Assembly: GCA_026709025.1 (NCBI GenBank)
Contig: JAPOTT010000032.1
Span: 92,803-156,802 of the forward strand
Length of the DNA: 64,000 bases
Direction of reading: 5' to 3'
DNA from: a bacterium
Lineage (GTDB): Bacteria > Actinomycetota > Acidimicrobiia > Acidimicrobiales > Bin134
Shown: positions 1 to 20,215 of the stretch, piece by piece
Layout: each line of letters begins with the position of its first letter
Position numbering within the stretch: the first letter of the stretch is position 1
Notes under the pieces: model-generated
Database searches by the model: none
Told to the model about the DNA's origin: nothing
What the model saw: only the letters and a program-made list of their open reading frames with translations
Program-made: the position numbers and the translations under genes

Positions 1-2515
1 CGATCTTGACGGCAATGAGTCCGCTAACAGGCGGGTTGAACGGGGCGGATCGTGTTGAGGTGAGCGCTTGTTGCTCGGACTCGTCGGCGTTGTGGCCCAG
101 TTTGTCGAGCAGCTTTTTGATGAGCTTGTCGCCATCAGCACCGGGGAAGTGAATACGCCGGGCAAAGAAGCTCTCCCCGTCATGGTCTGTGTCAATCATC
201 CAACAAGCGATGTCGTTTGGCCCACCACTGGCGGGAGCACCTGTAGCCGGATCGAACGTGTCGTAACCAGCAACGGCCACCGAGATCCGTCCGTCTGTGT
301 CACTATCACTTACTTCAATATCTGGGCGGCCCAAGATTACAAACGCCTCGTGGCCGGTTTCCTCTGAGAGGTCACGAATTATCAGGTCGCGATTCATCTG
401 AGCTTGGGCCACAGCAATTCGCCCAACTGTATGGGGAGCATCAGGGGCAAACGCATAAGCCACCACAAGCAACAAGTCGGCCGACTCCGCACCGGAGGCC
501 ATCTCCCGAGCTGCTTCGCGGATCATCTCGGCGGGCACGGTCACATCTTCGGCAGCGACCATCACCGCGGCTGTGTGCTCAGCAGCACCACCATTGACGG
601 TGTAGATGGCCTTCCATGCGAGAAGCTGCGAATCTGCAGGCCAGGGCTCCAAAGCCGAGATCGTCATATCTGTAGCAGCGCGGCCTCCGTTGATAGTGCG
701 ATGCAAAAGCGCGTGCTCAACCGCTTGTGAAAAGTCACTTTGGGCGGTGAAGTTTTCGTCTTCAGTGCCCTCGAAGGGGATCACCGTTGCCCACGGCTGT
801 TCGCTCTCCACGGTGAACGGCGAAGCCACACGCACCACGCCGCGCTTTCTGCGGGGCCGATCTACAAGCATGATTGGCTCTGGGTTAAGGTTATAAGCGA
901 GCGTGCTAGCCGACACCTGCGACACGCGCTCATAAACAAAACCTAAAGCCGGATCTTCGCCCCATCCGTGCTCAGATGGCTGCCGAAGAGTATTGCCAGA
1001 CAACTCGGCTTCTTGGGCTGCCCCATATTCGGAGTCGGCTAGCGCCCAGTAATCAAAAGTGGTGGTAGATAAGCGCTGGCGTGCTATGGCTATGGAGACT
1101 GGTGAGGTGTCGCAGGTGATCCATCTGCGCCCCCACTCCTCAGCCACAGAAGCGGTTGTGGCGCCACCGCAGGTGGGATCAAGCACAAGATCCCCAGGAT
1201 CGGTGGACATGAGCATGCACCGCTGAAGCACGCTGTTTGCTGTTTGGACTACATAGCGTTTGTCTGAGGTAGACATCTGCTGGTGCCATAGGTTGTGGAT
1301 GCGACGACCGGGCACCTCGTCCTCGTACCGCCTCCAACCAAGTCTGCCTTCACTCCCAGCCGCATCGAGTCGACCGAGTTCGGCCAAACGATCCATCCCT
1401 TCCATGGAGACGCTCCATTGTCGACCCCGTGGGCAGGGCCAGTCTTGTCCATTCCATTGATAAGACTCAGAGCGTCCAGTCTGTGATTCGCCTTGCGAAT
1501 CCAGTGACATTCTGCGGTAAGCGCGGGCACCTTCAGGAAGATGCTTATCGGGATCGGCCTTCTCCTCATCAGTCAGCTGTCTAGTAGTGCCGTCAGCGAG
1601 TTCGACCATTGCATGCCAACTCATGTGTGCAATCTTCTCCGCTTGGGTAAGCGGCTCATACAGCTGTCGATACTTGAGTTTTTCCTTATCTTTGGCGTAC
1701 CACAGCAGGAAGTCTGCAACGCTGGGAAGAGTCTTTGCAGAAGAACTGCTAGTTGTTGCGAATGGAATGATTGCTATTCGATTGTCGGCACCGAATATCT
1801 CATCCAAGAGCACTCCTACTCTCAACACGTTCTCATCGCCGATTTGCATGAATAGCGAGCCAGATTCGGTCAGCAGTTCGCGCATCAGTACCAGCTTTTC
1901 GTAGGTAAGGTCTAGGTAAGAGTGGATGCCGCGCTGATAGGTGTCACGAAACGCCCGGACGGTACGGGTGTCAAGTGGTCGACCCTTAGCTTTCTCGGGG
2001 GTGCTGTCGTTTTGGCCTACTTCCACTTGAAAGTTGGATTTGTAACCCATCCCATAAGGTGGATCAAAGTAAATCATCTGCACCTTGCCCACCATCTGCT
2101 CTCGCGCAATTAAAGAGGCCATTACACGGACGGCCTCGCCGTGGATTAGTCGGTTAGACCAGTTAGCAGTGTGCTGGTACCACTCATAAGCAGCATCGGC
2201 CGATGGTAGGCCATTGAAATCGCTAAACAAGCTAGGCTGTTCTCCGCTACCTTGAAGCAGCTTGGCAAACGCTGCCGGATGTACTTTTTCACGCACATAC
2301 AAAGGATGCGCGGCGTGCCCCCCCCCATGAAATAGCTGGCGATCCCACGCCAAAACCGGTTCATCGTCAACCATGCGAGTTTCAGGTTTGTGCAAGATGG
2401 GCTTGCGATCTGCTTCGCTCATGGTAGTGGCAGTCTGCTCGGTGGGCAGGTTGGTTCGCCGGGCAGATGAGTGGGTGTACTGTTCGGCAGTCTTGCTGCT
2501 GGCCTTTTGGGGCAT
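1..2515 (-). CDS. mod: Type III-like R-M DNA methyltransferase (Mod, beta-class amino-methyltransferase), 3'-partial. It runs off the left edge and is absent from the supplied ORF track.
   Basis: Manual minus-strand translation from the ATG at 2515-2513 gives one uninterrupted frame of 838 codons down to position 1; the track appears to list only complete ORFs. The N-terminus reads '...YEWYQHTANWSNRLIHGEAVRVMASL'. Motif IV is 'MIYFDPPYG' (DPPY at 2065-2054) and motif I is 'LVLDPTCGGATTASVAEEWGRRWITCD' (about 1180-1151). The order IV-TRD-I is as in Type III Mod proteins. More than 380 aa follow motif I. The ATG overlaps the res TGA (ATGA). Confidence 0.85.
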   Translation of the reverse strand, partial: MPQKASSKTAEQYTHSSARRTNLPTEQTATTMSEADRKPILHKPETRMVDDEPVLAWDRQLFHGGGHAAHPLYVREKVHPAAFAKLLQGSGEQPSLFSDFNGLPSADAAYEWYQHTANWSNRLIHGEAVRVMASLIAREQMVGKVQMIYFDPPYGMGYKSNFQVEVGQNDSTPEKAKGRPLDTRTVRAFRDTYQRGIHSYLDLTYEKLVLMRELLTESGSLFMQIGDENVLRVGVLLDEIFGADNRIAIIPFATTSSSSAKTLPSVADFLLWYAKDKEKLKYRQLYEPLTQAEKIAHMSWHAMVELADGTTRQLTDEEKADPDKHLPEGARAYRRMSLDSQGESQTGRSESYQWNGQDWPCPRGRQWSVSMEGMDRLAELGRLDAAGSEGRLGWRRYEDEVPGRRIHNLWHQQMSTSDKRYVVQTANSVLQRCMLMSTDPGDLVLDPTCGGATTASVAEEWGRRWITCDTSPVSIAIARQRLSTTTFDYWALADSEYGAAQEAELSGNTLRQPSEHGWGEDPALGFVYERVSQVSASTLAYNLNPEPIMLVDRPRRKRGVVRVASPFTVESEQPWATVIPFEGTEDENFTAQSDFSQAVEHALLHRTINGGRAATDMTISALEPWPADSQLLAWKAIYTVNGGAAEHTAAVMVAAEDVTVPAEMIREAAREMASGAESADLLLVVAYAFAPDAPHTVGRIAVAQAQMNRDLIIRDLSEETGHEAFVILGRPDIEVSDSDTDGRISVAVAGYDTFDPATGAPASGGPNDIACWMIDTDHDGESFFARRIHFPGADGDKLIKKLLDKLGHNADESEQQALTSTRSAPFNPPVSGLIAVKI
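2318..2326 (-). repeat. G9 homopolymer (C9 on the + strand) inside mod, codons 64-66 (Gly-Gly-Gly)
   Basis: Read directly as 'gtgccc ccccccatga'. Exactly 189 nt (63 codons) separate the mod ATG from the tract. It is the longest homopolymer I noticed in the window. Confidence 0.9.
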
Positions 2516-5505
2516 CATGCTGCTCCTTGCTGTGGGATGTGAAGCTCTACAGGCTTGGGGTGTGAGGTTTGAGTGTGGGCGCTGCGGACCTCAGCTATGG
2601 CTATGTTGAGATCTGCGGTCATGCGGTCTTTGTTGGCTAGCTCCACAAAAGACCAGCTGCGCAACCATCTAGGAAGTTGGGCAGAAGATTCCACAGCGGG
2701 TATCCATTTTTCGGTTGTTGCCTGCTTTTTACGCTCAGAACGGTCATCTGTGATGCCCTTGCATTCGATGATGAGGTGGACAGCTGATTCGTCTTCGCGT
2801 TCACCAAACAGGCGCACCACGAAATCGGGTTCGTAGTGATGCCATGCACCTTCCCACAGGCAGGGAATCTCCCAGCCGAGCCGAAAGTTACGCGCCCAGC
2901 CGCGCACGTCAGGGTGATTGTCCAGTTGCCAAGCTAACGCCGCCTCAAACTCCGAATGACACGCTGCCGCGCTCAACTCCGAATGTTTGGCAACGTGGCG
3001 ATCTACCAGGCTGGTTTCAAATGATATGCCCGAGGTGTCTAGCAGGTTGGGGTAACCGAACGTAGCAGCCACCCTGTCGGCAGTGGCATCAGCGGGCAAA
3101 CAGGCATCGGCAATCTCCTTTGTGGCTTGGACCAGGTTTGCTGAACCGATGGTATTCCAATCGGCGGCAATCACATTTGCAAGCTCAGCCCATTGGCTGA
3201 CTATACGGATGGCATCGTGAAACAGGTAACGTCGCCGCGCTCGCCAACTATTGCCTGTTTCATCAAGGTGAGTACACCAGCGGGTAACCAATTCAGCTGC
3301 AAGGCGGGTTTGGGCCTGCTGTGCACGCATCTGTTCATACGCCTTGAGGGTGGTAGTGCCACCTACCGACCCCGATAGCTCAGTTTGTGCAACACCATCG
3401 GGTACCCACCTAATCACCCTCGTTTTATCGAGGCGGAAGCGGTTTGAGCCATGTTCGGTAAGATATGAAGCCACGTTAGGGAAATCCACGCGGTACATCT
3501 GTCGACCATGCACACTTTTTACTTCGTAGCGTGGTTTGGGCGGGCTGCTTACGTCCTGGCCTTTGGTTGGCATGAACTCAAACGGCACGCCAATCACCTC
3601 GGCGTACTCGGCAACGAGGCGGCCCTCGGTGTCGTAGTTGTCGTAGTTAGAGCGCCGCAGCGCCCGTCCAGTCACCTGCTCACACAGCAGTTGGGTGGAG
3701 AAGGCCCTGTAGCCACAGATGTGAGTGACGGTGCGAGTGTCCCAACCCTCGGTGAGCATCTGCACCGATACAACACACCGAATGTGTTCACCGAGCCCTC
3801 CAGCCTTGCCTACCGAGTTCAGGGCGCTCCGCACCACCTCCTTATCGTCTCTGTTGTCGCCGGGTTCTCGCAAGCGGGCAGCCTGCGAGCTGACAGACTT
3901 GTTCAGGTTGGCTTCTCCCTCGAGTTGAGAATGGACTAGTAACGTGTGCATCTGCTCTGTTGGCTTACCTTCTGAGTAGTTGACTAACAACGGGTAAGCT
4001 CCGTTGTGACACTCGGTGGTGCCATCATCTTGCTTTTCCAACCAGCCAGAGATGTGGTCGGCTATGGCCGTTGCATTGGAGATATTATTTGCCACCACAA
4101 TCAGCACTGGCGGAGTGGGCATTCGCAGTTTTGGATCTTCCGGGTTCATCCACAGGTCGTACTTCTGTTCGTAACTGCTGTATAGCGCATCAAGCGCTCG
4201 TTTGAGTTCGGCGGGCACAGCATCGCGGCGCACCTTCTTGGGAGTGGTGTTGCGATACAGGTTGCGCCATTTCACATCGCCAGCGTCCGTGTTGTCGTCT
4301 ATTGGTACCTGCGGTATCTTCACTAACCCAGATTCAATGCTGTCCATAAGAGGGAAGTCCGACACCACCCACGGGAACATGCGTTCTTTACGCTCGGAGC
4401 CTTCTATGAAAATTGGCGTGGCCGAGAAATCGTACACCGGGCCTAGCTGTTGCGATTCGCGCAGCCCGGCTAGAGCGCCAAACCAGATTGCCGCCGCTTT
4501 GGTATCATCATCGCCATCTGCGCCACGCCGACCCGCTTCGGGTAAGTAGCAGTGGTGGGCTTCATCGTTGAGCACGCACACCCGTGGCGCGCCACTCCCC
4601 TTTGGAAAACCTCGCAGGATCCTCTGCAAAACAGCATCCATAGATTCGTATTCGGTTTTGTCGCTACCGACACGGAATAGTTTCTTGGCATCGCTCGAAG
4701 CAACAGCCAAGCGATCTCTGGGCGCGAACGCATGAAAGTTCAGCACCCGTATCTTTACCGCCCCCAGGCAAGCCCGCATACTCTCTGGCAAAAGCCGCAT
4801 TTCGTCATACACGTTTTCTTGATGGGTGGGTTGTAGCACCGCTAGGCGCTCCCTAACTGTATGGCCTGGTGCTATTGCTAGAAAACAGGTGGTGTAACGA
4901 CTATCACGGCGGCGTGTGGACGCAGCGTTGGCAGCGTGATAGGCGATCATCATGCCCATTACGGCTGTCTTGCCCGAACCGGTTGCCATCCGCACCGCCC
5001 AACGGGCGATGCCATCGTTGTACTCGTTGTTTGCATCTATTAACTGGCGGCGCACTTCAGCCAGCACCGGGTACTTGCTGGCGTTAGCCTCGGTTAACCA
5101 GATCAGAGTTTCGACGGCCTCTACCTGAGCAAAGAATAGCCGGGGTTCATTGGTTTCACTGCGCCAGTGCTGCAAAAGATGCCTAGTTGTTGCCGTTGTT
5201 CCAGGATAGGCCGAATGCCGCCACGCACCCACCGCGTCTCGGATGCGATTCACCAACTCGTTCTGTTCTGCGGAGGTGACCTGCATTCGCAACTGCGTGC
5301 CGCGCTGTTTGGGGACTATCACCAGTGCCTGGCTCAACCGGCGACCCTCAATCACCTCGCCAGTAGCAATGTTGTCCTCGCCTAATTCCCAATAGCGAGA
5401 AGGCTCTAAATGAGGCCGGTTCAGCACAGGCTGTGTAACGTGGTCGAGCACCCGAGATGGAGTTGGCAATGGCTTAGGTGCATGGTTAGCGCCATCGGTT
5501 GTCAT
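2515..5505 (-). CDS. res: Type III restriction enzyme Res subunit (SF2 helicase/ATPase with a C-terminal PD-(D/E)xK nuclease)
   Basis: 996-aa ORF. Helicase motifs are I 'MATGSGKTAV', II 'VLNDEAHHCY' (DEAH), III 'DFSATPI' and V/VI 'MLTEGWDTRTV...QVTGRALRR'. The C-terminal nuclease motif is 'YEPDFVV...HLIIECKG'. An RBS-like AAGGTGA sits just upstream of the ATG at 5505. Confidence 0.9.
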   Translation of the reverse strand: MTTDGANHAPKPLPTPSRVLDHVTQPVLNRPHLEPSRYWELGEDNIATGEVIEGRRLSQALVIVPKQRGTQLRMQVTSAEQNELVNRIRDAVGAWRHSAYPGTTATTRHLLQHWRSETNEPRLFFAQVEAVETLIWLTEANASKYPVLAEVRRQLIDANNEYNDGIARWAVRMATGSGKTAVMGMMIAYHAANAASTRRRDSRYTTCFLAIAPGHTVRERLAVLQPTHQENVYDEMRLLPESMRACLGAVKIRVLNFHAFAPRDRLAVASSDAKKLFRVGSDKTEYESMDAVLQRILRGFPKGSGAPRVCVLNDEAHHCYLPEAGRRGADGDDDTKAAAIWFGALAGLRESQQLGPVYDFSATPIFIEGSERKERMFPWVVSDFPLMDSIESGLVKIPQVPIDDNTDAGDVKWRNLYRNTTPKKVRRDAVPAELKRALDALYSSYEQKYDLWMNPEDPKLRMPTPPVLIVVANNISNATAIADHISGWLEKQDDGTTECHNGAYPLLVNYSEGKPTEQMHTLLVHSQLEGEANLNKSVSSQAARLREPGDNRDDKEVVRSALNSVGKAGGLGEHIRCVVSVQMLTEGWDTRTVTHICGYRAFSTQLLCEQVTGRALRRSNYDNYDTEGRLVAEYAEVIGVPFEFMPTKGQDVSSPPKPRYEVKSVHGRQMYRVDFPNVASYLTEHGSNRFRLDKTRVIRWVPDGVAQTELSGSVGGTTTLKAYEQMRAQQAQTRLAAELVTRWCTHLDETGNSWRARRRYLFHDAIRIVSQWAELANVIAADWNTIGSANLVQATKEIADACLPADATADRVAATFGYPNLLDTSGISFETSLVDRHVAKHSELSAAACHSEFEAALAWQLDNHPDVRGWARNFRLGWEIPCLWEGAWHHYEPDFVVRLFGEREDESAVHLIIECKGITDDRSERKKQATTEKWIPAVESSAQLPRWLRSWSFVELANKDRMTADLNIAIAEVRSAHTQTSHPKPVELHIPQQGAA

Positions 5506-5608
5506 AGCATCACCTTACAACCTCAACTAGCGCGCTACAGGGCATTCACCCCCACCGCTTCCACCCACTTCTACGTTGCGAGTTCGCTCTTATTGCCTAG
5601 AACTACCT

Positions 5609-6892
5609 TTAGGGTTTTAGTGCGGTGATGGACACCACTCCTACCCCGTCAGTTCGCATGTAGGGTTTCCCGGTAGAAGTGATGATAATAAGTGCGCTGG
5701 GAGCACCCATAACGCTTGTGTCAACTTTGGCGGTCAACTTCAACAACGATTGAGCTGCTTCTTCAATTGCATCGGGAGCCCCCAGCTTAACCTCAACTGC
5801 AATCCATTTACCGTCGTCTCGCTCTAAAATTGCATCTACTTCAAGCTTGTCTTTATCGCGGTAATGATAAACCGCACTTCGGCACGCTTGGGCATAAACA
5901 CGGAGATCTCGCATCACCATTGATTCAAAAAGCAACCCAAGAGCTTGTCTGTCTTTGAACAGGGAATCGGCGCTAGCTCCGAGGGCAGCCGTTGCCAACG
6001 ATGGATCAACGAGATGGTGCTTAGGAGATGACCGCAAAGTAGAGCGCGACAACAAACGTACCTTCCAAGCTGGCTGAGGTTCATAGATGAAAATACTGCT
6101 CAGCGCGTCCAGATATGTTCGCACTGTCTGGCGGGCTATAGCCCCGCTTTCGCCCAGATCAGTTGCCAACGTGTTCTGACTAGCTTCTGAAGCGCTGTTT
6201 CGGGCTAGCGATGCAAGCAATCGCCGCACACCCTGGGGATTGTGTCGGATGTTGCTAGTTTGCGGTAAATCTACACGACAAACCTCGTTCAGATAGTCCC
6301 GCGCAAACTCTTGCGCGTCACGAGGCTCTATGTGTTGAGTGAGTGGCCAGCCACCCCGCAGTAGCCAATCTATAACTTCTCTGAGTTCATCTGCAGGCGT
6401 GGCATTGCTCGTCGTCAAAGGTCTTAGATCAGCTTCGTATCCCGAATCAAAAAGTTTCCCGAGGCTTACTGTTCCAGTTGAAGTCCCACTCTCCCAGAGC
6501 GACATGGGCCGCATCAAAATTCGCCCTACCCGACCAGCACCAGAATGCCGAAAGATGTAATCAGAGGGTCGAGCCGAAGCTGAGAGAATGAACCTTCCTG
6601 GTCTGCCTAAACGATCGCTAGCCCGCCTGACTTGATCCCACAGCCCGGGAACTAAAGGCCACTCATCCAAGAGCATGGGATGTGCGCCTTCCGTTAGAGG
6701 TAGCGTTCCTTGCGATGCGTGACCCCGCGCCGACTCGTCTTCGTCAAACAAAATCTCACTAGCAGCGAACTGCTGCGATGTTGTCGTCTTACCACAACCG
6801 CGCGTGCCTTCGACTAGAACCACTGGAAGCGAGCGCAGTTTGTCGGCTATCTGGGTGTCAATCACCCGTGGCATATAGCGATCCACAACCAT
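5609..6892 (-). CDS. AAA+ ATPase with a C-terminal DUF4143 domain (COG1373-type predicted ATPase), paralog 1
   Basis: 427-aa ORF. Walker A is 'EGTRGCGKTT' and Walker B-like is 'PMLLDEWP'. The C-terminal 'LEVDAILERDDGKWIAVEVKLG' resembles a restriction-endonuclease-fold D...E-x-K motif. It is co-directional with res, 103 nt upstream of it. Confidence 0.8.
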   Translation of the reverse strand: MVVDRYMPRVIDTQIADKLRSLPVVLVEGTRGCGKTTTSQQFAASEILFDEDESARGHASQGTLPLTEGAHPMLLDEWPLVPGLWDQVRRASDRLGRPGRFILSASARPSDYIFRHSGAGRVGRILMRPMSLWESGTSTGTVSLGKLFDSGYEADLRPLTTSNATPADELREVIDWLLRGGWPLTQHIEPRDAQEFARDYLNEVCRVDLPQTSNIRHNPQGVRRLLASLARNSASEASQNTLATDLGESGAIARQTVRTYLDALSSIFIYEPQPAWKVRLLSRSTLRSSPKHHLVDPSLATAALGASADSLFKDRQALGLLFESMVMRDLRVYAQACRSAVYHYRDKDKLEVDAILERDDGKWIAVEVKLGAPDAIEEAAQSLLKLTAKVDTSVMGAPSALIIITSTGKPYMRTDGVGVVSITALKP

Positions 6893-6960
6893 AATCTAAC
6901 ACTTTGGCGATCATTTATCTTACAATTCGGCGAACAATTATCTAACAAAACAGCGACCCA
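6892..6960. repeat. Three tandem, exactly 23-bp-phased degenerate repeats (TTATCTWACA-N4-GGCGA) that abut and overlap the start codon of DUF4143 ATPase paralog 1
   Basis: Units are 6892-6914 'taatctaacactttggcgatcat', 6915-6937 'ttatcttacaattcggcgaacaa' and 6938-6960 'ttatctaacaaaacagcgaccca'. Pairwise identity is 16/23 and 17/23. The word and the GGCGA/AGCGA box each recur at exactly 23 bp. Confidence 0.85.
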
Positions 6961-7131
6961 CATTGCGCACCAACAGACTTGCGCCAGACTGTTCAAGCCA
7001 CCAATCCAACGCTGTGATACCAACAGTCTTTTGAGTCCCCAGTGCGCTGTCCAGCAGTTTTGTAAAGATCACCTAAAACCTCCAGGATATAAGATCCCAC
7101 ACGTTCTCCTTTGTTGTCCTACCCGCTAGCA

Positions 7132-7164
7132 CTAGGGCTTTAGCGTGGTAACGGTCACCACTCT
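7132..7164 (-). pseudogene. Relic of the 3' end of a third DUF4143 ATPase paralog
   Basis: The minus strand reads '...RVVTVTTLKP*', against the C-terminus '...GVVSITALKP*' of paralog 1. About 25 of 33 nt are identical to 5609-5641. An in-frame stop lies 26 codons upstream, so only the tail survives. Confidence 0.6.
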
Positions 7165-7238
7165 AAAACCACATTGAGACTTGTTGGGCTTTACCCAAAG
7201 CGTCTTGACACAAGGCAATTAAGCATCAAGATGGCAAC

Positions 7239-7475
7239 ATGCGAACCATACTCACCCTTGATAGCGATGTCGCCGATGCACTAAAAGAGCGCGCCCGTCA
7301 GTTTGACCAGACATTCAAACAAGTCGTCAACGATACACTCCGACGCGGTCTGTCATCCGTCTCTGATGAACTTCAAACCCCCTATAAAGTAAAACCGCAC
7401 AACAGCGGCTTTCGTGCTGGAGTCGACATGCTTCACCTCAGTCAACTCGCTGACGAAGTCCAATCTGACCACTAA
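7239..7475 (+). CDS. vapB: Type II antitoxin, VapB-like ('MRTxLTLDxDV' family)
   Basis: 78-aa ORF. 'MRTILTLDSDVADALKERARQFDQTFKQVVNDTLRRGL...PYKVKPHNSGFRAGVDMLHLSQL' follows the pattern of antitoxins paired with PIN toxins in Actinobacteria and cyanobacteria. Confidence 0.6.
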   Translation: MRTILTLDSDVADALKERARQFDQTFKQVVNDTLRRGLSSVSDELQTPYKVKPHNSGFRAGVDMLHLSQLADEVQSDH

Positions 7476-7532
7476 TCACCTATTCACATATTATGAGCCA
7501 TCCAGCGTCGCCGCATCATGCTATGGACTTAG

Positions 7533-7604
7533 GAACTGAGTGGTTTCGTTAATCGTTTCCCCGGCCTACGCTGGCGCAACCCTTTGAAAACGACTCTACA
7601 GTAA
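7533..7604 (+). pseudogene. C-terminal remnant of the cognate PIN-domain VapC toxin; about 300 bp of the gene is missing
   Basis: The frame after a TAG at 7530 reads 'ELSGFVNRFPGLRWRNPLKTTLQ*'. The 'RFPGLRWxNPL' tail is typical of VapC C-termini. Only 129 nt separate the vapB stop from this stop, where about 400 nt would be expected. Confidence 0.45.
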
Positions 7605-7643
7605 AATCAGCATTGGTTAGCAAATCTATCACCGTCATCTACC

Positions 7644-8588
7644 GTGCCTAGAAGTTTCAACTCAACAGCACAAACAAAAACAAACGGTACTGCTGCAAAG
7701 TTCCGTTCATATTTCGAACTTTTGGGTTTGGGTGTTGGGCGGTTTATGTCATCGCGGCGCGCTAGGGTATGGGCTATGATCTTGTGGGTAACGGCGGTGA
7801 CGATTGCAGCGCTAGGTGTAGCTGTGTTGTTGGTGGGATTAGCGATGCGCGACGGCGACCTCGCTACGAAATTATTAGGTGTGTTGTGGGGGTTTGGTTT
7901 TGTGGTGGTGGCTTGGGTGGCCTGGCTTATTGCCGACGGACACGGAGTGCGAACGGCGCTTTTAGTGTCTATGGCTACTGCTTGGGGGCTTCGACTGGGA
8001 ATCTATCTGGCGTTTCGTAATCTGGGCCAAAGGGCGGCTGGAAGCAACGGAAGTAGCAGAAGCAGCGAGTCGGCTTCCGAGGGCTCTGGCGAACATGCCA
8101 GAGCCGAGGGCATCACCTTAGCTGTGGTCATGCAGACGTTTATGCAAAGTGCAGCTATGTGGGTGCTTGCGTTGCCGGTGCAAATTGGCATCGGCGAAAC
8201 CAGTCGGGGCTGGACTCCCTTGTGGGTAGTTGGCGCTGTGGTGTTCTTAGCGGGATTCCTGTTTGAGGCTATCGGCGACTGGCAACTAGCCCGCTTCAAA
8301 GCCAACCCGGCCTCTGTGGGTCAAGTATTAGACACCGGCCTGTGGCGCTACACCCGCCACCCCAACTACTTTGGCGACACTTTGGCATGGTGGGGAATTG
8401 GCCTAGTGGCAGCCTCAACCCCCATAGGCATCATTGGGCTAATCGGCCCCGCATTCAACCACTGGACACTCCTGAAGGTATCTGGGGTGCCCGCCTTAGA
8501 GGGCAACTTGAAAGACAAACGCCCAGGCTATGCCGACTACATCCAACGAACCAGCACCTTTGTCCCCCGTCGTCCCAAACAACTCTGA
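7644..8588 (+). CDS. DUF1295 / steroid 5-alpha-reductase-like polytopic membrane protein
   Basis: 314-aa ORF with multiple hydrophobic helices and the signature 'GLWRYTRHPNYFGDTLAWWG'. A Ser/Gly-rich insert reads 'AAGSNGSSRSSESASEGSGEH'. An alternative start is the ATG at 7746. Confidence 0.75.
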   Translation: MPRSFNSTAQTKTNGTAAKFRSYFELLGLGVGRFMSSRRARVWAMILWVTAVTIAALGVAVLLVGLAMRDGDLATKLLGVLWGFGFVVVAWVAWLIADGHGVRTALLVSMATAWGLRLGIYLAFRNLGQRAAGSNGSSRSSESASEGSGEHARAEGITLAVVMQTFMQSAAMWVLALPVQIGIGETSRGWTPLWVVGAVVFLAGFLFEAIGDWQLARFKANPASVGQVLDTGLWRYTRHPNYFGDTLAWWGIGLVAASTPIGIIGLIGPAFNHWTLLKVSGVPALEGNLKDKRPGYADYIQRTSTFVPRRPKQL

Positions 8589-8601
8589 GGTGCTTGAGGT
8601 G

Positions 8602-9125
8602 TTACAGATTGGCTATCTCGTGTTCAATGCGAGATTCAATGTATTCACGGGCTTTAGCAATACGGGGAGGCAGGTACTGCGAGGGAAATAAGCCTTCAGA
8701 AGGCTTATGGCTTTTCAGTATTTGCTTGGCGATGGTGTCTTTGTGGACTTCGGTTGGGCCGTCCACGATGCCCATAATGGGGCCAAACCCCCACATTGAG
8801 ATGAGCGGGCACCCGCACATCGTTGTAGCGCAGGTAGGCGTGATCGCCATCTTCCATATTATCTTGGCCAACACCTGCGTTAACCACCACCTCTATCCCA
8901 GCGGTGTCGGTGGGCACTAAGACCATCGAAGAGCCTCTGTATACCTGCACATACGGCTGTAAGTACATCTCCTTTTGCTGTGCGGTTCCATAGTGGGCAA
9001 TGATACGGTTCAGGCCAACCCTTCTCGCTGATGGGCGACCAACCGTCTATGAAATCCATGAGATAAAAGGCTGCTCCGATGATGCTGGTGTCTTCGGTGC
9101 CAACTGCCCACTCCCCCAGCGCCAT
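8602..9125 (-). pseudogene. Degraded remnants of a phosphotransferase (APH-like) gene and an acyl-CoA dehydrogenase gene, with frameshifts and large internal deletions
   Basis: Three short minus-strand ORFs lie in different frames. 8880..9125 carries 'AFYLMDFIDGW' (APH-like). 8705..8968 carries 'SSMVLVPTDTAGIEVV...YLRYNDVRVPA' (ACAD middle domain). 8602..8874 carries 'IVDGPTEVHKDTIAKQILK' (ACAD C-terminus). Together they cover less than half of the two expected genes. Confidence 0.6.
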
Positions 9126-9186
9126 CGGGTCAATCAGCCCTTCGGTTCTTTGGTCGAGGAGTTCGTGTTTTGATGGTTAAGCGCGA

Positions 9187-9274
9187 ATTACATAGTCGAA
9201 GCGAAGAAAACCATATAGTCAACAAGGCGAAAATCATATAGCACATAGATCAATGCAGGCTTTATAGTGGTCAC
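9187..9274. repeat. Phased degenerate repeats (CATATAGTC core; three copies at a 23-bp period, plus a fourth ATAG word) directly upstream of DUF4143 ATPase paralog 2
   Basis: Units are 9187-9209 'attacatagtcgaagcgaagaaa', 9210-9232 'accatatagtcaacaaggcgaaa' and 9233-9255 'atcatatagcacatagatcaatg'. The ATAG cores at 9192, 9215 and 9238 are spaced at 23 bp. 'tttatagtg' occurs at 9261-9269. GCGAA boxes are interspersed. Confidence 0.75.
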
Positions 9275-10516
9275 ATGCAGCCTGAGTCAGAGCGCTACCC
9301 TCGGATCGTTGAGCGTGTGCTACGCGAAAACTTGCTGCCTGATTTTGCTGCCATCTTGATTGTGGGGCCTCGCGGCTGCGGTAAGTCTACATCGGCCGCA
9401 CAGTTTGCCGACGCAACGCTTGATCTCTCGCTTCCTGGCATAGCGCGCTCAGCTAGAGAAGATCCTGACAGCATGCTCAACGCCGTATCTGGTTGCTTGG
9501 TGATTGATGAGTGGCAAGAAGCTCCCGAGATAGTCGGTGCTGTAAAAAGAGCAGTGGATGCTGGTGCTGGTGACAACCGATACTTGCTAACTGGTTCAGT
9601 GCGAGCTGCTCGTCAGGCATCCACATGGCCTGGAACGGGCCGCTTGATTCGGATGCGCATGTGGGGTCTGACCCAAGGTGAAATAGCTGGCGATAATGTA
9701 TACAACCCTGTCGATGCACTTTTTTCCGATCAGTCTCCAACCTGTCACAGCGAGATCACTAGGAGCATGCTCTTAGAGCGGATAGTGGCAGGCCGCTTTC
9801 CTGAGGCGCTAGCTCTTGCAAACCAGAGTCGTTCGTACTGGTATGAGGGTTATGTGGAGCAACTGGCCGATTTGGATGCGCGTCAAGTAGCTAGCGGGCG
9901 ACCTGAGCCTCAGAAATTGCGGGCAGTGCTATCGTCTTGTGCAGCGCGCACAGGTCAAGTGTTGAACAAACAGGCCGTATCTCGTGATGCTGGCGTAACA
10001 GCCGTGACCGCTGATGCTCATCTCAGCCTGTTTGAAGATCTGTCTGTTATTGTGCGTATACCTGCATGGCACAACAAGCGTCTTTATCGCCTTACCCGTT
10101 CACCCAAAGTGTATGTGAGCGATCCAGGAATTGCAGCACATCTTTTAGGGCTTGACGCTGCTACTTTATTGTTAGATGCCACTGCGGTGGGTCAACTATT
10201 TGAAACATTCGTTGTGTCCGAAATAATGCCCCATCTTCAATGTGGTTCTGCACCCACTTTCATGTATCACTTTCGTGACCATTCGGGTCGCGAAGTTGAC
10301 TTGCTCCTCGAAAGAGGAGGCCGCGTTGTTGGTCTGGAAGTAAAGTCAGGCACCTCGGTAGGCAGTGAAGATGCCCGCCATTTGCGCTGGCTTCGCGAGC
10401 AACTTGGCGACAATTTCCACCTGGGTGTTGTGCTCTATAGCGGGCAGTTTGCAGTTCAGCTTGGCGAGCGTCTTTGGGCACTGCCCATAAGCTTGCTGTG
10501 GCAGCCACCGCGATAA
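9275..10516 (+). CDS. AAA+ ATPase with a C-terminal DUF4143 domain (COG1373-type), paralog 2
   Basis: 413-aa ORF. Walker A is 'VGPRGCGKST', followed by 'CLVIDEWQ'. The C-terminus reads 'GREVDLLLERGGRVVGLEVKSG'. Its architecture matches that of 5609..6892, and it is divergently oriented to that gene. Confidence 0.8.
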   Translation: MQPESERYPRIVERVLRENLLPDFAAILIVGPRGCGKSTSAAQFADATLDLSLPGIARSAREDPDSMLNAVSGCLVIDEWQEAPEIVGAVKRAVDAGAGDNRYLLTGSVRAARQASTWPGTGRLIRMRMWGLTQGEIAGDNVYNPVDALFSDQSPTCHSEITRSMLLERIVAGRFPEALALANQSRSYWYEGYVEQLADLDARQVASGRPEPQKLRAVLSSCAARTGQVLNKQAVSRDAGVTAVTADAHLSLFEDLSVIVRIPAWHNKRLYRLTRSPKVYVSDPGIAAHLLGLDAATLLLDATAVGQLFETFVVSEIMPHLQCGSAPTFMYHFRDHSGREVDLLLERGGRVVGLEVKSGTSVGSEDARHLRWLREQLGDNFHLGVVLYSGQFAVQLGERLWALPISLLWQPPR

Positions 10517-10518
10517 AA

Positions 10519-10583
10519 CCTTAGCTAGTGTAATCAGGTTACCTGCATCCCATGATTACAAATGGAACAATCTAAAGCTAAGG
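10519..10583. terminator. Nested inverted repeats between convergent genes; a possible bidirectional terminator
   Basis: The outer pair is CCTTAGCT (10519-10526) / AGCTAAGG (10576-10583). The inner pair is GTAATCA (10530-10536) / TGATTAC (10553-10559). The central palindrome is AGGTTACCT (10536-10544). There is no clear U-tract. Confidence 0.3.
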
Positions 10584-10592
10584 CTGAGCTAG

Positions 10593-12470
10593 TTAGGGAC
10601 AGCGGTTGCTTGTTTCCCACGCACTCCAAGCGCTAACAGGTTCACTTAACTCGGTTTCTCGCGCTCTCATTTCGTACACTTCTCCGCTATTTGGATCTGC
10701 TGAGAAGATAGATTGCCATTCATCTCTAGACGATTTAAATGCATACGATGAAGCTTTCACGGTGCGCCCCGATGATTGCTCTCTGATCTCAAGGTCAAAT
10801 CTTCTAGTTTCGTAGTCAAAGTTAGATTGTCCAGCATTCCATAACACCTCTAAACGTGGGGTGTTAGACCAGCTCAGCTCAATACATCTGAATTGAAACG
10901 AAAATGGTTCGGTTGATGCTGATGTAGATGTTGGTTGCAGTTCTTCATCCACTTCTACCCACCCGCACTTATCAAGAACAGGATCAATATGCGCGACCGC
11001 CTGTTCTAACGGGAATGCCCACAGTGCAGATGTATCTCTGCCAACCTGAACTTCCGCCCAGATAAGAATTTCAGAGAGAGGGCTGATTCGCAGCAAGTTC
11101 ACTATGTTTCTGATATCATCGTCGTCGGCCACAGAAACAAAATCGCTACCAGGAATCAAATCTATCCAAACAACATTATCTCTTAGATGCTGGTCCCTTC
11201 TAACATCACTCCAGTCCAACCACCCATACGGCCTAGCGTCATAACCCCCATTCACTACAGTTCTCGCACTCCACAACTTCTCCCCTGTATCGACCCACAC
11301 ATACACATCGCCGTCTGCTATGCCACAAACTACCTGAAGGTACACACCGTTTTCTAAAATATCTTCTACCTGCGCGTACCAAATAGTGTCGAACATTCGA
11401 CTCTCCCAATTCCCTGTTTGCGGCGCTGGAGTTGGATTAGGCGCAACAGTAGAACCGTTTGTTGCGCCGCAAACTCCCCCGGTAGGAATTAACGCGTAGG
11501 TAACGTACAGATGATCGGCTACACATCGGAAAATATCGTTGTGTACGCATGCTTGGTATGTGTCGTCATCAAGATTGCTGCAACTCTTGAGCGACGGATG
11601 ATCCGCTATCAGAGCGTGAGCTGTTTCATGTAGCAACACCAGAAGGAACGAATCGAGACGATCTATGTGATGAAGTGAATGGCGGTAGCAACCAATAGTC
11701 CCGCCAGCAGCACACTCAGTGCCAGAAGGTACTAACGCTGCGGTTGGCGGCTCAGCCGGTTTGCCAGCAACATCAACTTCCTCCCAAATACGTCTTAGAA
11801 GTTTCGCCGCTTCACCGTCGCTCACAGAATAGTTGTGCGTCTTGTCTAAGTAGTGTTCACGCCAAGCACATTGCTGCTCCCAGTCGTATATACCTGCACC
11901 AATATAAGAAGCGCACTTACCTGACGGCGCTTGAGGCGGCACAACGATAAGTGGTTTCTGAGCAGAAACGGCTACATCCTGTCGAGAGCAAAGCCCAGGA
12001 ACTATGGACATGTCGATTCCGAAACGACACCTAATAGTGTTCAACTGCCATTCTTGAGCTTCTATCAGCCTATCTCTTTGCGCTATACCGAGACTGGTTG
12101 GTTGGCCTAAGAACGGTTGAGGTTGAGTGAGGGTTCGGGCGGGCTTGCCGTCCCGGCACCCACCCGGGACAACACCGATATCGATACCAAAACGACAGCG
12201 ATACGAATTCAACAAACCCTCTTGTGCGAACACAAGGTTGTCCCTGGCCCGCACATCAGCAACCGTTGGAGGGTCAATTTGGTTGGTCGATACCACAGTG
12301 CCTACTTGTTGAGGGTTATGTCCATTATGGGCAACCACAGGAACAACCCCTACAATCAGCACAGACCAACAAACTAAAACCGCACATATAACCTTCACCA
12401 AAAAAGAACATACACCGACCTCCCGTGCAAGTTCAATGTCTAGTGGCTTATCTACAGATGAGCGGGCCAA
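10593..12470 (-). CDS. Secreted or membrane-anchored Cys-rich protein with an HExxH zinc-metallopeptidase-like motif, an N-terminal duplicated 30-aa module and an FN3-like C-terminus
   Basis: 625-aa ORF with a TTG start. A more likely start lies near the hydrophobic 'VKVICAVLVCWSVLIVGVVPVVA' segment. The repeats are 'RDNLVFAQEGLLNSYRCRFGIDIGVVPGGC' (12156-12245) and 'RDRLIEAQEWQLNTIRCRFGIDMSIVPGLC' (11988-12077), with 19/30 identity. 'LLHETAHAL' places HETAH at 11616-11630. The C-terminus 'YEMRARETELSEPVSAWSAW' is FN3-like. By eye the gene is more AT-rich than the core genes. Confidence 0.7.
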   Translation of the reverse strand: MARSSVDKPLDIELAREVGVCSFLVKVICAVLVCWSVLIVGVVPVVAHNGHNPQQVGTVVSTNQIDPPTVADVRARDNLVFAQEGLLNSYRCRFGIDIGVVPGGCRDGKPARTLTQPQPFLGQPTSLGIAQRDRLIEAQEWQLNTIRCRFGIDMSIVPGLCSRQDVAVSAQKPLIVVPPQAPSGKCASYIGAGIYDWEQQCAWREHYLDKTHNYSVSDGEAAKLLRRIWEEVDVAGKPAEPPTAALVPSGTECAAGGTIGCYRHSLHHIDRLDSFLLVLLHETAHALIADHPSLKSCSNLDDDTYQACVHNDIFRCVADHLYVTYALIPTGGVCGATNGSTVAPNPTPAPQTGNWESRMFDTIWYAQVEDILENGVYLQVVCGIADGDVYVWVDTGEKLWSARTVVNGGYDARPYGWLDWSDVRRDQHLRDNVVWIDLIPGSDFVSVADDDDIRNIVNLLRISPLSEILIWAEVQVGRDTSALWAFPLEQAVAHIDPVLDKCGWVEVDEELQPTSTSASTEPFSFQFRCIELSWSNTPRLEVLWNAGQSNFDYETRRFDLEIREQSSGRTVKASSYAFKSSRDEWQSIFSADPNSGEVYEMRARETELSEPVSAWSAWETSNRCP

Positions 12471-12557
12471 GTTGGTTCAACGTCATCTAGACAATGCGAC
12501 TGTACGGAGAGAGCTTGATGGATTCAAAAGGAATATGTCACAGGGTACTAGTACTGT

Positions 12558-13826
12558 GTGGGTATGGATTTTACATCTGTTTCAGCCGACCATATAGGAG
12601 CCAGCCATACAGAGGCCAGGCAGCAACCTAACGGTGCTGGCTCTAAGACCCACGTTGGCTGTGAGGCTTTTGTGTGCGTGGACCGTGCAGATGTTGCTGC
12701 GCTGTCTGATACGGAGTTACGTCAATGGCTCGGTGAGTTGGGATCGGCCGGTTCCAAGTTGGAAGCGCTTAGGGCTGAAGCTTTAGCCGAGTTATCACGG
12801 CGTCACAACACTGGGGGTGCCAAGCGGGTTGTTCGTGAAGTGTTGCGCTCGTCTCCGAGTGCGGCTCATCGGGATGTGAGGTCGGCTGAGCGGATGACCA
12901 AACTGGCTGACACCTCTGACGCTTTAGCATCAGGCCAAATACCTACCGATCATGCCCGCTTGATCGCCCGAGCCTCTTCAGAAGGACCGATTATCGAGAA
13001 CGATCTAGTTGAAGCTGCTAAAACCCAAAGCTTTGATGAATTTTCAAGAACCGTAAAACGCCAACAGCATGCACTATCTGCCGATGACGGCCAGTCACAA
13101 ATAGAACGGCAACGCAAACACCGCTCAGCCAAGTTGTTTAAAAACCACGAAACGGGCATGTACGTCCTCAACGCCGAGTTGGATTCAATCACAGGTGCCA
13201 ACATTGCTGGAGCATTAGCCAATAAAGAACGTCAATTCTGGCATCAAGAAAAAGCAAAAAATCGCCGCACCCCTGCACAACGCTCCGCAGATGCTCTAGC
13301 AGAATTAATCTTGCATCCAGAGAAGGGCAAAGTCGCAGGTATAGCCTTAGTGCTAGTAGCCGACTACGACACAGCGCACCAAAAGTTGATCGATGCGCGC
13401 ATATCAGACGGCACCCCGTTACCTGCCAAAGAACTCGTACGGCTAGCCTGTGAAGCCGATATTTTCCCGGCAGTATTCAAAGCCAAAACCCAAGATCTAT
13501 GGCTAGGCAGACGGCGGCGCTGTGCTAGCGATGCCCAGCGACTCGCACTGCTAGTACGAGACAAAACTTGCGTGGGCTGTGGTGCCGATGCCAACCGCAG
13601 TTTCTCCCACCACATTCGGCACTGGCAGAACGGGGGCGAAACTAACTATTCAAACTTGGTCACCGTATGCAACGACTGCCACCACGACATCCACGAACGC
13701 CATCACCAGATACAAACCAACCCTCACACCGGCAAACATAGCGTGCTAGCGCCACCTGAACCTTTTCCAGACGGTGGCAGCAGTGACTGGCAACCAGCAC
13801 AACGTAACCCCGTACTCAGAAACTGA
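12558..13826 (+). CDS. HNH endonuclease with an N-terminal DUF222 domain (actinobacterial REP13E12-type)
   Basis: 422-aa ORF. The C-terminal HNH motif is 'CVGCGADANRSFSHHIRHWQNGGETNYSNLVTVCNDCHHDIH'. The helical N-terminal region resembles DUF222. Confidence 0.85.
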   Translation: MGMDFTSVSADHIGASHTEARQQPNGAGSKTHVGCEAFVCVDRADVAALSDTELRQWLGELGSAGSKLEALRAEALAELSRRHNTGGAKRVVREVLRSSPSAAHRDVRSAERMTKLADTSDALASGQIPTDHARLIARASSEGPIIENDLVEAAKTQSFDEFSRTVKRQQHALSADDGQSQIERQRKHRSAKLFKNHETGMYVLNAELDSITGANIAGALANKERQFWHQEKAKNRRTPAQRSADALAELILHPEKGKVAGIALVLVADYDTAHQKLIDARISDGTPLPAKELVRLACEADIFPAVFKAKTQDLWLGRRRRCASDAQRLALLVRDKTCVGCGADANRSFSHHIRHWQNGGETNYSNLVTVCNDCHHDIHERHHQIQTNPHTGKHSVLAPPEPFPDGGSSDWQPAQRNPVLRN

Positions 13827-18984: not shown

Positions 18985-19157
18985 CTCATCTCACCGTACC
19001 TTGTAGATTTAGTAACCTTGAACCGCACAAACAGATCAGATACCAAATTATTAGCACAGTTGTTGGCTTTGGTTTGAAACCCAGCAATACAGACGTGTAG
19101 GTTAAAGTCATTGCAGCAAAAGCTGCTTAAAAAGCTCAACTGTATCAAGGAGAAATA

Positions 19158-19556
19158 ATGGTATCTGAGGAAGCTAAAGATGCGCGAGCATACGGCCAAG
19201 CCCAAGGACGCACGGTAAGCCGTTACCTGAATGCGCTGGATCAAAGCAAGCCCAAGAGTGGTCGCAAGCGCTCTGTGGAGAAGATCCAGGCACGGGTAAC
19301 AGAGCTTCCTAACGAAATTGCTCAAGCCAAGCCCCTCAAGCGAGTTCATCTAATCCAAGAACTCATGGATTTAGAAGCTGAGCTAGCTAGCGACACAAAT
19401 CCGGTAGACATCAGCGTTACTGAAAACGACTTCATCGCTATTGCTGCCGAATACAGCGGGCGCAAGGGCATTTCTTATGCCGCTTGGCGTGAGGTTGGGG
19501 TGCCAGCAAGCGTGCTGAAGTCCGCAGGCATCTCTCGGGCTGTAGCCACCGACTAA
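19158..19556 (+). CDS. Hypothetical K/R-rich protein, encoded opposite to and embedded in the pur cluster
   Basis: 132-aa ORF with a strong SD (AAGGAGAAATA-ATG). Its 3' end overlaps the purQ 3' end by 4 nt. I recognise no family. Confidence 0.55.
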   Translation: MVSEEAKDARAYGQAQGRTVSRYLNALDQSKPKSGRKRSVEKIQARVTELPNEIAQAKPLKRVHLIQELMDLEAELASDTNPVDISVTENDFIAIAAEYSGRKGISYAAWREVGVPASVLKSAGISRAVATD

Positions 19557-20215
19557 CCATCGCTGTTCAAACCCTTCAACAACCGAGCACCATCGGTGCT
19601 CCCTAGCAACGCATGAGCGGCTCGCTCGGGGTGGGGCATTAGCCCCACCACGTTGCCGTTTGCATTAGATATACCCGCAATATCAGCAGTGCTTCCATTT
19701 GGATTGTCTGTGTAGGTCAACACAATAGAATCGGTGGCTTGCAAATCGCACAGAGTCTGCGGCGAACACAAATAATTGCCCTCAAAGTGGTTAATGGGCA
19801 CTTGTAACTCTGTGCCCACTGCTAGATGGCGGGTTAGCACTGAGTTATTTGATTTTACTTGCAAGCTGCTGGGTTGACATAAGAACTTCAAACCCTTGTT
19901 CTTATGCAGAGCCCCCGGCAGCAGTTGAGCTTCTGTGAGTATCTGAAACCCGTTACAGATGCCAACTACTGGCCCGCCTTGGTGAGCAAACTTCGTAACT
20001 GCTGTCATAATAGGTGAAAAGCGAGCCATGGCCCCGGTACGCAGATAATCACCATGGGCAAACCCTCCGGGTAGTACCACTGCGTCTATGTTTCCCAAAC
20101 TGTTGTCTTTGTGCCATACCAAACGCCCCTCGATGCCTACTTCGCCTAGCGCGCCAACCACGTCTTGTTCACAATTTGAGCCTGGAAAAACTACTACACC
20201 CACTACCGTTGTCAT
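19553..20215 (-). CDS. purQ: FGAM synthase glutamine amidotransferase subunit PurQ
   Basis: 220 aa with 'LPGGFAHGDYLR', the nucleophile 'GICNGFQIL', and 'MPHPERA'. The start overlaps the purS stop (ATGA). Confidence 0.95.
   Translation of the reverse strand: MTTVVGVVVFPGSNCEQDVVGALGEVGIEGRLVWHKDNSLGNIDAVVLPGGFAHGDYLRTGAMARFSPIMTAVTKFAHQGGPVVGICNGFQILTEAQLLPGALHKNKGLKFLCQPSSLQVKSNNSVLTRHLAVGTELQVPINHFEGNYLCSPQTLCDLQATDSIVLTYTDNPNGSTADIAGISNANGNVVGLMPHPERAAHALLGSTDGARLLKGLNSDG

Follow-up and report, generated by a model that had tools for sequence, protein, structure and literature searches.

Plasmid iterons, such as those of pSC101, F, R6K, P1 and pPS10, are head-to-tail repeats of about 20 bp that are spaced by roughly two helical turns and lie beside the gene whose product binds them. 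These iteron/Rep systems are autorepressed and have private specificities against cross-talk (plasmid incompatibility); their Rep proteins are built as WH1-WH2, the iterons lie in the origin, and rep autorepression classically acts via inverted half-sites. Orc1 reads DNA bipartitely, with its winged helix and with the initiator-specific motif (ISM) of its AAA+ domain. Operators of the Lrp-family, NrdR and DnaA type are bound cooperatively, their sites are usually palindromic or irregularly spaced, and their proteins are dedicated regulators. Here, we describe three head-to-tail 23-bp repeats at 6892-6960 of a 64,000-nt stretch of DNA from an Acidimicrobiia bacterium ('the window'; GenBank assembly GCA_026709025.1, contig JAPOTT010000032.1, positions 92,803 to 156,802), directly upstream of the gene of a DUF4143/PDC-S01 ATPase-nuclease (paralog 1).

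We found this array is real, selected, family-wide, promoter-overlapping, specific to each paralog and co-varying with the winged helix of the adjacent protein, and it behaves as a cassette with its gene. It is probably the cognate operator of the adjacent ATPase-nuclease, which would repress its own promoter. Like iterons, the repeats stand head to tail about two turns apart beside the gene of their putative binder, with private specificities and predicted autorepression. Unlike iterons, they show no sign of a replication function; moreover, the adjacent protein combines an AAA+ module, a winged helix and a nuclease, and the locus is chromosomal, beside a pur operon, so it does not belong to the iteron/Rep class. 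With the operators of Lrp-family regulators, NrdR boxes and the DnaA boxes at the dnaA promoter, the array shares several phased sites that overlap the regulator's own promoter, but those operators are without a fixed 23-bp head-to-tail lattice that is kept across phyla with changing words. The array is best explained as a phased autoregulatory or iteron-like type of site attached to a very abundant, uncharacterised family.

In published work, the DUF4143 domain is classed as a PD-(D/E)XK nuclease (PMC3424549), and PDC-S01 joins an ATPase to a PD-(D/E)XK domain (PMC3424549, PMC12988326). Among the 'defence systems' of prokaryotes, PDC-S01 is reported to rank fourth in abundance, and among single loci of rumen microbiomes it is reported to be the most frequent; most defence candidates of this kind still await experimental validation (PMC12988326, PMC13356809). 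PMC12988326 counts 29,494 bacterial and 9,986 archaeal PDC-S01 loci. The paralogs described here are thus members of a candidate phage-defence family, with a candidate role in defence. The text available to us from the literature on DUF4143, COG1373 and PDC-S01 does not describe an upstream repeat array, in agreement with the first-pass annotation of this DNA, which was made from the sequence alone and likewise knew of none at COG1373/DUF4143 genes.

Three 23-bp units and a bipartite word

Tandem Repeats Finder detected 2.7 copies of period 23 with no indels at 6887-6948, and a separate repeat search again gave a spacing of 23 bp; both agree with the three units that had been read from the sequence at 6892-6960. 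On the plus strand, the units read TAATCTAACACTTTGGCGATCAT / TTATCTTACAATTCGGCGAACAA / TTATCTAACAAAACAGCGACCCA. Two pairs of units are identical at 17/23 positions, as had been claimed (16-17/23), but the third pair is identical at 14/23. On the gene strand, each unit opens with a two-part word, GCY-N5-GTWAGAT, and its remaining bases (about 8) are unconstrained. The two boxes (on the minus strand, GCC or GCT, then GTTAGAT or GTAAGAT) recur at the strict 23-bp period reported for them.

We stacked the array units from 12 orthologs whose proteins are 67-80% identical. The distal units gave the logo GCCA-aatt-GTTAgAT and, after it, 8 positions that carry almost no information; unit 3 of paralog 1 fits this logo. 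The proximal units gave GcCA-N4-GTTAGacT, in which the final T is conserved. A conserved word next to a free spacer indicates selection on a binding site rather than recent slippage.

A fourth in-phase unit beyond 6960 was considered and rejected: the similar words AAGTCTGTTGGT and AAGACTGTTGGT sit 28 bp from unit 3 instead of 23 bp and match at about 8/15 positions. The same region holds a direct repeat, ACCAACAGACTT / ACCAACAGTCTT, at 6969-6980 and 7019-7030 (spacing 50 bp). It reads AAGTCTGTTGGT on the gene strand, is loosely operator-like (TGTTAG to TGTTGG) and lies outside the 23-bp phase; these could be degenerate old sites or chance. No RNA families were found by an Rfam scan of 5000-11000.

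Enrichment in the host genome

The host genome is an Acidimicrobiia metagenome-assembled genome (MAG) of 2.2 Mb and 54.5% G+C that has 10 full DUF4143 genes and one fragment; the names of its close homologs put it among MAGs that include the sponge-associated Candidatus Poriferisodalis. For each gene, the 148 bp upstream were compared with themselves, without gaps, at all lags between 15 and 40. The best lag was exactly 23 for 8/10 DUF4143 paralogs versus 2 of about 1907 other open reading frames (ORFs; Fisher p = 4.5e-19). Among the 1917 ORFs of at least 150 amino acids, eight had a lag-23 score of at least 10, six of which are DUF4143 genes, and three had a score of at least 17, all of them DUF4143 genes; the two remaining positive paralogs were missed in the ORF-wide scan through N runs or a longer open frame only. 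Similarly, whole-genome Tandem Repeats Finder gave 7 distinct period-23 arrays, 5 of them upstream of DUF4143 genes.

For the word of paralog 1, we found five occurrences of CGCY-N4-TGTWAGAT in the 2.2-Mb genome, three within the array and two as single full words elsewhere, and the word forms an array at its own promoter only. Across the host genome, the word is neither avoided nor enriched (TGTTAGATA, 19 found and 16 expected; TGTTAGATT, 12 found and 20 expected).

The only genes outside DUF4143 with a lag-23 score of at least 10 are on contigs C27 (ORF 17940-19331) and C48 (ORF 982-2106). Judged by eye, one resembles TldD/PmbA (two copies of GCCGKTAGGCT) and the other CcdA (two copies of CAGATACCGKTAT); these weak two-copy repeats are possibly sites of other regulators, or chance. 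Away from DUF4143 genes, there is also a period-23 array at C2:54696-54756 (TTAATCCCATAATTGACGGG, 2.6 copies, 66% matches), about 330 bp upstream of a 387-amino-acid ORF (C2:53206-54369, minus strand). By eye only, this ORF resembles an ATPase-type regulator that binds DNA and has a helix-turn-helix at its C-terminus.

The 23-bp period across phyla

Within the same genus, the best lag was 23 in 30/30 homolog loci (43-76% identity, 24 genomes). The best lag was also 23 in 74/78 loci of a one-genome-per-species collection, which spans Acidimicrobiia, Demequina, Bifidobacteriaceae, many Bacteroidales, a Kiritimatiellae MAG and an Oscillibacter record, so that Actinomycetota, Bacteroidota and Kiritimatiellota are covered in addition to the Oscillibacter record. 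Corroborating these results, lag 23 was best in 67/78 metagenome loci (with lag 22 in 6 more) and in 25/30 relatives of paralog 2; a single genome, G012, has 17 further paralogs, and lag 23 was best in 15 of them. The median number of copies per array is 3.2 (range, 1.4-6.7). The rule that recurs in the family is at least 2 head-to-tail copies with a period of 23 bp, directly upstream of the gene and in its orientation, and paralog 1 follows it. The first-pass annotation had named upstream regions across genomes as the place to look, and 23-bp phased repeats do recur there in most homologs examined. Since the same period is found in phyla with differing promoter architecture, it would be set by the geometry of the array-binding protein and not by RNA polymerase.

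Two homologs with about 38-40% identity are on plasmids of cultured strains. The first, on plasmid NZ_CP041396.1 of Bacteroides ovatus 3725 D1 iv (L253, gene DYI28_RS29395, 19114-20391), has AAGCCAAACTGCCGAATAATATT in three perfect copies, with a TAnnTTTG promoter element after them. The second, on pCaero1 of Collinsella aerofaciens ATCC 25986 (L254, gene GXM19_RS10835, 4384-5649), has a clear 23-bp array with a small helix-turn-helix regulator gene immediately upstream.

Start codon and promoter

Unit 1 had been described as overlapping the initiation codon ATG 6892. This ATG is present, but the public gene call for the exact protein is 425 amino acids long (P0001), which matches GTG 6886-6884, and a start at GTG 6886 brings paralog 1 into register with the M-x-x-Y-x-P-R N-termini of its paralogs. 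The true start codon of paralog 1 is probably GTG 6886 rather than ATG 6892. With this start, the array ends 6 nt upstream of the start codon and contains the -10 box, the layout on the gene strand being TGT-TAGATT, then ATGGTT, then GTG (6886).

This arrangement is shared by the orthologs: in 11/12 of them, the proximal word is a TANNNT -10 hexamer and ATG or GTG follows 6-8 nt further on. In the host genome, TANNNT lies 6-8 nt before the first start in 8/10 DUF4143 paralogs (paralog 1 counted from GTG 6886) versus 10.9% of all ORFs. Unit 2 also holds a second TANNNT hexamer, TAAGAT. Because there is no space for a Shine-Dalgarno sequence, a leaderless mRNA is the simplest explanation, and leaderless mRNAs are common in Actinomycetota. 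Paralog 1 would thus have a leaderless mRNA, with a transcription start predicted from this layout. A sigma-70 consensus scan of the gene strand found no -35/-10 pairs, which is compatible with -10-only actinobacterial promoters and is not informative. The two paralogs of the host genome with no array (C31:5436-5915, 561 amino acids; C31:90869-91330, 384 amino acids) both keep a leaderless-type TANNNT 6-7 nt before ATG.

In other clades, the array stops at the -35/-33 region, upstream of a separate -10/-7 element and a ribosome-binding site; in Bacteroidales, it stops at the -33 region, upstream of TAnnTTTG. The core promoter is abutted or overlapped by the array in every case examined, and the array has one orientation relative to the gene.

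Private words and the gene-array cassette

The eight arrays of the host genome have eight unrelated words, and no word was seen twice among the 15 further arrays of G012. In comparison, orthologs across two genomes share their words: CCCAATATATTGGG; TTTTGCaACTTTCAACGCGTCCA; GTACAAATTG(C/T)GG; GCCAnAnnGTTAGrT; and ATCATATAG. There are 10-19 DUF4143 paralogs per genome on chromosomes of 2-3 Mb, with at least 17 loci in G012. Since each paralog has a private word, these 10-19 copies could coexist in one small genome without cross-talk.

The private words also bear on whether something other than the adjacent protein reads the repeats. A host global regulator might bind them, RNA polymerase might use them as tandem -10-like promoters, or they might be neutral slippage duplications. 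Each unit does have a -10-like hexamer (TAGATA, TAAGAT, TAGATT), 23 bp is the start-to-start distance from -35 to -10, and a canonical -35 was not found. However, words that differ fully between paralogs of one cell are unreadable by a single host factor, and the word co-varies with the adjacent protein. The 23-bp period is also found in Bacteroidota, whose promoters have -33/-7 elements, and the -10 box of other paralogs falls within the unit spacer or downstream of the array. Neutral duplication is excluded by the conserved word and the free spacer. We consider this group of explanations very improbable.

Compared with its 76%-identical ortholog in G012, paralog 1 shows DNA similarity from 54 bp upstream of ATG, inside the array, to 5 bp past the stop codon, and the flanks of the two genes are unrelated. 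Four further orthologs have differing neighbours (aldehyde dehydrogenase and thioesterase; FrhB and ArgRS; others). Hence, with homology confined to the array and the ORF in varied contexts, the two form a single-gene cassette.

Such a cassette might be mobile, with the array as its end and as a recombination or homing site for the PD-(D/E)XK nuclease or a host recombinase. The homology boundaries, which start in the array and stop 5 nt past the stop codon, the unrelated contexts of orthologs, the many paralogs per genome, the plasmid copies and a possible relic of another copy just upstream would all suit a mobile element. Against this, the 3' end of the gene lacks a counterpart of the repeat (the word is absent from 5400-5700), flanking inverted repeats were not found, the array is always 5' in a single orientation and fused to the promoter, and co-movement with the gene is expected of any cis-regulatory element. 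We regard a recombination or homing site as improbable, and the operator remains the reading that we prefer.

The possible relic is a short frame at 7132-7170 (minus strand) that reads GFRVVTVTTLKP followed by a stop; the C-terminus of paralog 1 is GVGVVSITALKP followed by a stop. This frame, which lies about 170 bp upstream of the array, may be what is left of another DUF4143 gene at its 3' end; owing to its shortness, it gave no significant tblastn match. The genus also has several DUF4143 copies with internal stops, plus truncated fragments.

Domains and fold of the adjacent protein

Both paralogs of the window have Pfam AAA_14 and DUF4143 above the cut-offs, match the PADLOC PDC-S01 profile PDLC04790 (1.2e-68 for paralog 1 and 1.4e-115 for paralog 2) and belong to PDC-S01/COG1373 over their full length by family profile hidden Markov models. 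The motifs of paralog 1 are intact, namely Walker A (GTRGCGKT), Walker B (LLDEW) and the nuclease motif VDAIL...VEVK (D...EVK). In an alignment of 76 sequences, G32, K33, D74, E75 and D351 never vary, and E365 and K367 hardly do.

An AlphaFold2 model made from this alignment (predicted local distance difference test score, pLDDT, 91; predicted template modelling score, pTM, 0.91) resolves the domains listed in Table 1. Foldseek matched the model in the PDB to MalT, Orc1/Cdc6 on origin DNA (2qby), Card1, SAMD9, plant NLRs, RFC and ORC subunits, and Apaf-1, with E of 1e-5 to 1e-3 and low template modelling (TM) scores, as expected for a multi-domain protein. In comparison, phmmer of paralog 1 against the PDB gave no significant matches, and no Orc/Cdc6 sequence-family match was found in Pfam or NCBIfam. 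Hence, the earlier description of an Orc1/Cdc6-like ATPase holds for the fold (2qby), but not for membership of the sequence family, and a nuclease domain follows the winged helix.

The likeness to Orc1/Cdc6 is clearest for Orc1-1/Orc1-3 of S. solfataricus at oriC2 (2qby), where an AAA+ domain is likewise followed by a winged helix (fold match E = 2e-5, probability 1.0), sequence-specific repeated boxes lie beside the protein's own gene, and reading is bipartite, as is the word of paralog 1. Unlike Orc1/Cdc6, paralog 1 has an extra C-terminal PD-(D/E)XK nuclease, and the TM-scores of the fold match are low (0.2-0.3). Its arrays are strictly head to tail with a 23-bp step, whereas origin recognition boxes (ORBs) are inverted and flank an unwinding element. 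The DUF4143 sites are at 10 loci in the host genome and at least 17 in G012, each at a promoter, which is not what is found for an origin.

These differences bear on the idea that the repeats are replication-origin iterons with the Orc1/Cdc6-like ATPase as initiator. Direct repeats adjoining the gene of an Orc1/Cdc6-like AAA+ winged-helix protein, and homologs on plasmids, would be in keeping with it. However, there are 10-19 gene-array pairs per 2-3 Mb chromosome, the locus has neither an AT-rich unwinding element nor an inverted site pair, the protein carries a nuclease, and the arrays coincide with the core promoter. We give next to no credence to an origin. The first-pass annotation had spoken of an operator- or iteron-type array; the operator is backed by the family-wide occurrence, the promoter overlap and the private words, but the replication iteron is unsupported.

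Co-variation of the word and the recognition helix

We compared words and proteins in a partial Mantel scan of all pairs among 97 loci, in which identity in a sliding 14-residue window was controlled for identity in the rest of the protein. Because the register of the word is ambiguous across clades, word similarity was measured pairwise without a register. Residues 246-259, the turn and the first half of recognition helix 252-264, ranked first of 59 windows (r = 0.28), and 0/2000 permutations reached this value. The windows starting at 239 and 253 ranked third and fourth. Window 50-63 of the AAA+ domain ranked second in this whole-word scan, which could hint at a second, Orc1-like DNA contact.

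Within a Bacteroidales subset, in which the register of the word is unambiguous, no pair of protein column and DNA position has higher mutual information than residue 253 and word position 11. At residue 253, D tends to go with CCG, E or K with CGG, N with CAC and R with TAC, and exceptions exist. In a noisy split-word analysis, the left half of the word tracks helices 231-240 and 256-265. Overall, the word co-varies, to a modest degree, with the recognition helix of the winged helix, and better than with other parts of the protein. A simple one-residue recognition code was not supported, due to the exceptions at 253, clade effects that dominate the z-scored mutual information, and the noisy split-word result.

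Proposed mechanism and its alternatives

Autoregulation or loading of the adjacent ATPase had been put forward as the simplest hypothesis, and the comparative tests (cassette, private words, recognition-helix co-variation and fold) agree with it, with a binding that we infer. In the mechanism we propose, a protein whose Orc1/Cdc6-like AAA+ module is joined to a winged helix and a PD-(D/E)XK nuclease would place one protomer on each bipartite word (GCC-N5-GTTAGAT), which would be read mainly by the recognition helix of the winged helix. The protomers would be arranged head to tail, and their 23-bp step (about 2.2 helical turns) would be fixed by protein-protein geometry. The occupied proximal unit would cover the -10 box (TAGATT) and the +1 of the leaderless promoter. 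Since the array overlaps the -10 hexamer, occupancy would exclude RNA polymerase and lead to negative autoregulation. Physical binding, cooperativity or ATP-dependent oligomerisation, and the sign of regulation are predictions from sequence comparison.

Several points weigh against this operator. Arrays of up to 6-7 units reach about -150 to -200, which exceeds the needs of simple repression, and two of the ten paralogs of the host genome, from other subfamilies, have no significant repeat at lags 15-40 in the 148 bp upstream. At the leaderless position of one ortholog, L013, there is a CTG with an abutting ATG. The co-variation is significant but modest, TGCGG words are found with E, D or A at residue 253, and the variable right half-word tracks N-terminal helix 6-20 more than the recognition helix. 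In addition, the winged helix of STAND NTPases (MalT, NLRs, Apaf-1) belongs structurally to the nucleotide switch and often does not bind DNA.

The long arrays also raise the alternative that the array serves chiefly as a platform for assembly or parking, in which an ATP-dependent head-to-tail filament would be stored on, or licensed by, its own array and released or activated upon infection or another signal, with autoregulation as a by-product. Arrays of 3-7 units that reach well upstream of the promoter, the period and orientation that are constant across phyla, the intact catalytic nuclease and Walker motifs, and a fold like Orc1/Cdc6 and STAND switches are all consistent with a platform, as is the membership of a candidate defence family in an island with a restriction-modification (R-M) system and an HNH gene. 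However, no second target was seen, with the word neither avoided nor enriched elsewhere in the host genome, and repression explains the fusion of the proximal unit with the -10 box more simply; the defence function of PDC-S01 still awaits experimental validation (PMC12988326). A platform overlaps with the operator, as cognate binding is needed by both, and we think it unlikely that storage or licensing is the main role.

A bolder extension of the operator, which we hold to be doubtful, is that DUF4143/PDC-S01 proteins are a huge family of sequence-programmable Orc1-like ATPase-nucleases, each with a private 15-bp specificity that can be read from its array. The array would be the lattice for an ATP-driven, directional head-to-tail filament with a 23-bp step that ends on the -10 box, and the 10-19 orthogonal pairs per genome would form a diversified immune or conflict repertoire. 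If this is true, the gene-array pairs would offer natural examples of protein-DNA recognition by the hundred, from which it could be decoded and engineered.

For the operator itself, the use is more immediate. PDC-S01 is without a known ligand, target or mechanism, and the paralog-specific promoter array offers it a testable DNA partner: the candidate binding sequence can be read from the genome, and the outcome of a recognition-helix swap can be predicted. For annotation, the array suggests leaderless DUF4143 genes in Actinomycetota, where gene callers can misplace starts. New here are the proximal unit fused with the -10 box of a leaderless promoter across the ortholog group, the corrected start codon, and paralogs within two genomes that keep mutually distinct words.

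Table 1. Features of the two DUF4143/PDC-S01 loci of the window and predicted domains of paralog 1
Feature	Position	Strand	Details
Paralog 1, DUF4143/PDC-S01	5609-6886	minus	425 amino acids from GTG 6886; 427 amino acids if ATG 6892
Repeat array, paralog 1	6892-6960	minus (gene strand)	three head-to-tail 23-bp units
Unit 1, promoter-proximal	6892-6914	minus	word GCCAAAGTGTTAGAT, reverse complement of 6894-6908
Unit 2	6915-6937	minus	word GCCGAATTGTAAGAT, reverse complement of 6917-6931
Unit 3, promoter-distal	6938-6960	minus	word GCTGTTTTGTTAGAT, reverse complement of 6940-6954
Predicted extended -10 element TGT-TAGATT	6893-6901	minus	within unit 1; start codon 6 nt downstream
Repeat array, paralog 2	9190-9258	plus	three 23-bp units at 9190, 9213 and 9236; word (C)ATATAGTC; ATAG cores at 9192, 9215 and 9238
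Predicted -10 box TATAGT, paralog 2	9263-9268	plus	6 nt before ATG 9275, leaderless
Paralog 2, DUF4143/PDC-S01	9275-10516	plus	413 amino acids; 24% identical to paralog 1
AAA+ core, paralog 1	residues 1-150		AlphaFold2 model
Lid, paralog 1	residues 164-206		AlphaFold2 model
Three-helix winged helix, paralog 1	residues 217-229, 237-244, recognition helix 252-264, beta wing		AlphaFold2 model
PD-(D/E)XK-type alpha/beta domain, paralog 1	residues 295-425		AlphaFold2 model

Paralog 2 and the surrounding island

The second DUF4143 gene of the window had been credited with an analogous array. This array is present, with a best lag of 23, and is weaker than that of paralog 1, with unit identities of 15/23, 10/23 and 7/23. 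The word ATCATATAG is kept in an 80%-identical ortholog of paralog 2 (L123; G012:C1:424317-425543). This ortholog has an in-frame TAA and is pseudogene-like, yet its ATCATATAG array is retained.

Both genes lie in an accessory island at 1-13826. Directly downstream of paralog 1 is a Type III-like R-M pair (2-5505, minus strand) with a stop/start overlap. One member is an N6_N4 DNA methylase (2-2518), whose frame is left open by the edge of the window; the other is a BPTD_3080-family restriction enzyme/helicase (2515-5505), which scored 772 bits in NCBIfam, slightly under the 800-bit cut-off. Upstream of paralog 1, a 78-amino-acid ORF at 7239-7475 (plus strand; MRTILTLDSDVADALKERARQ...) gave no Pfam matches at E of 0.001 or below and has no obvious toxin partner downstream. 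The island also holds a DUF1295 membrane protein (7644-8588), a DUF222-HNH endonuclease (12558-13826) and, on the minus strand at 10593-12470, a 625-amino-acid ORF with no assigned family. Its boundary is a purine operon with purM/F/L/Q/C/B-like genes from 14262 onwards.

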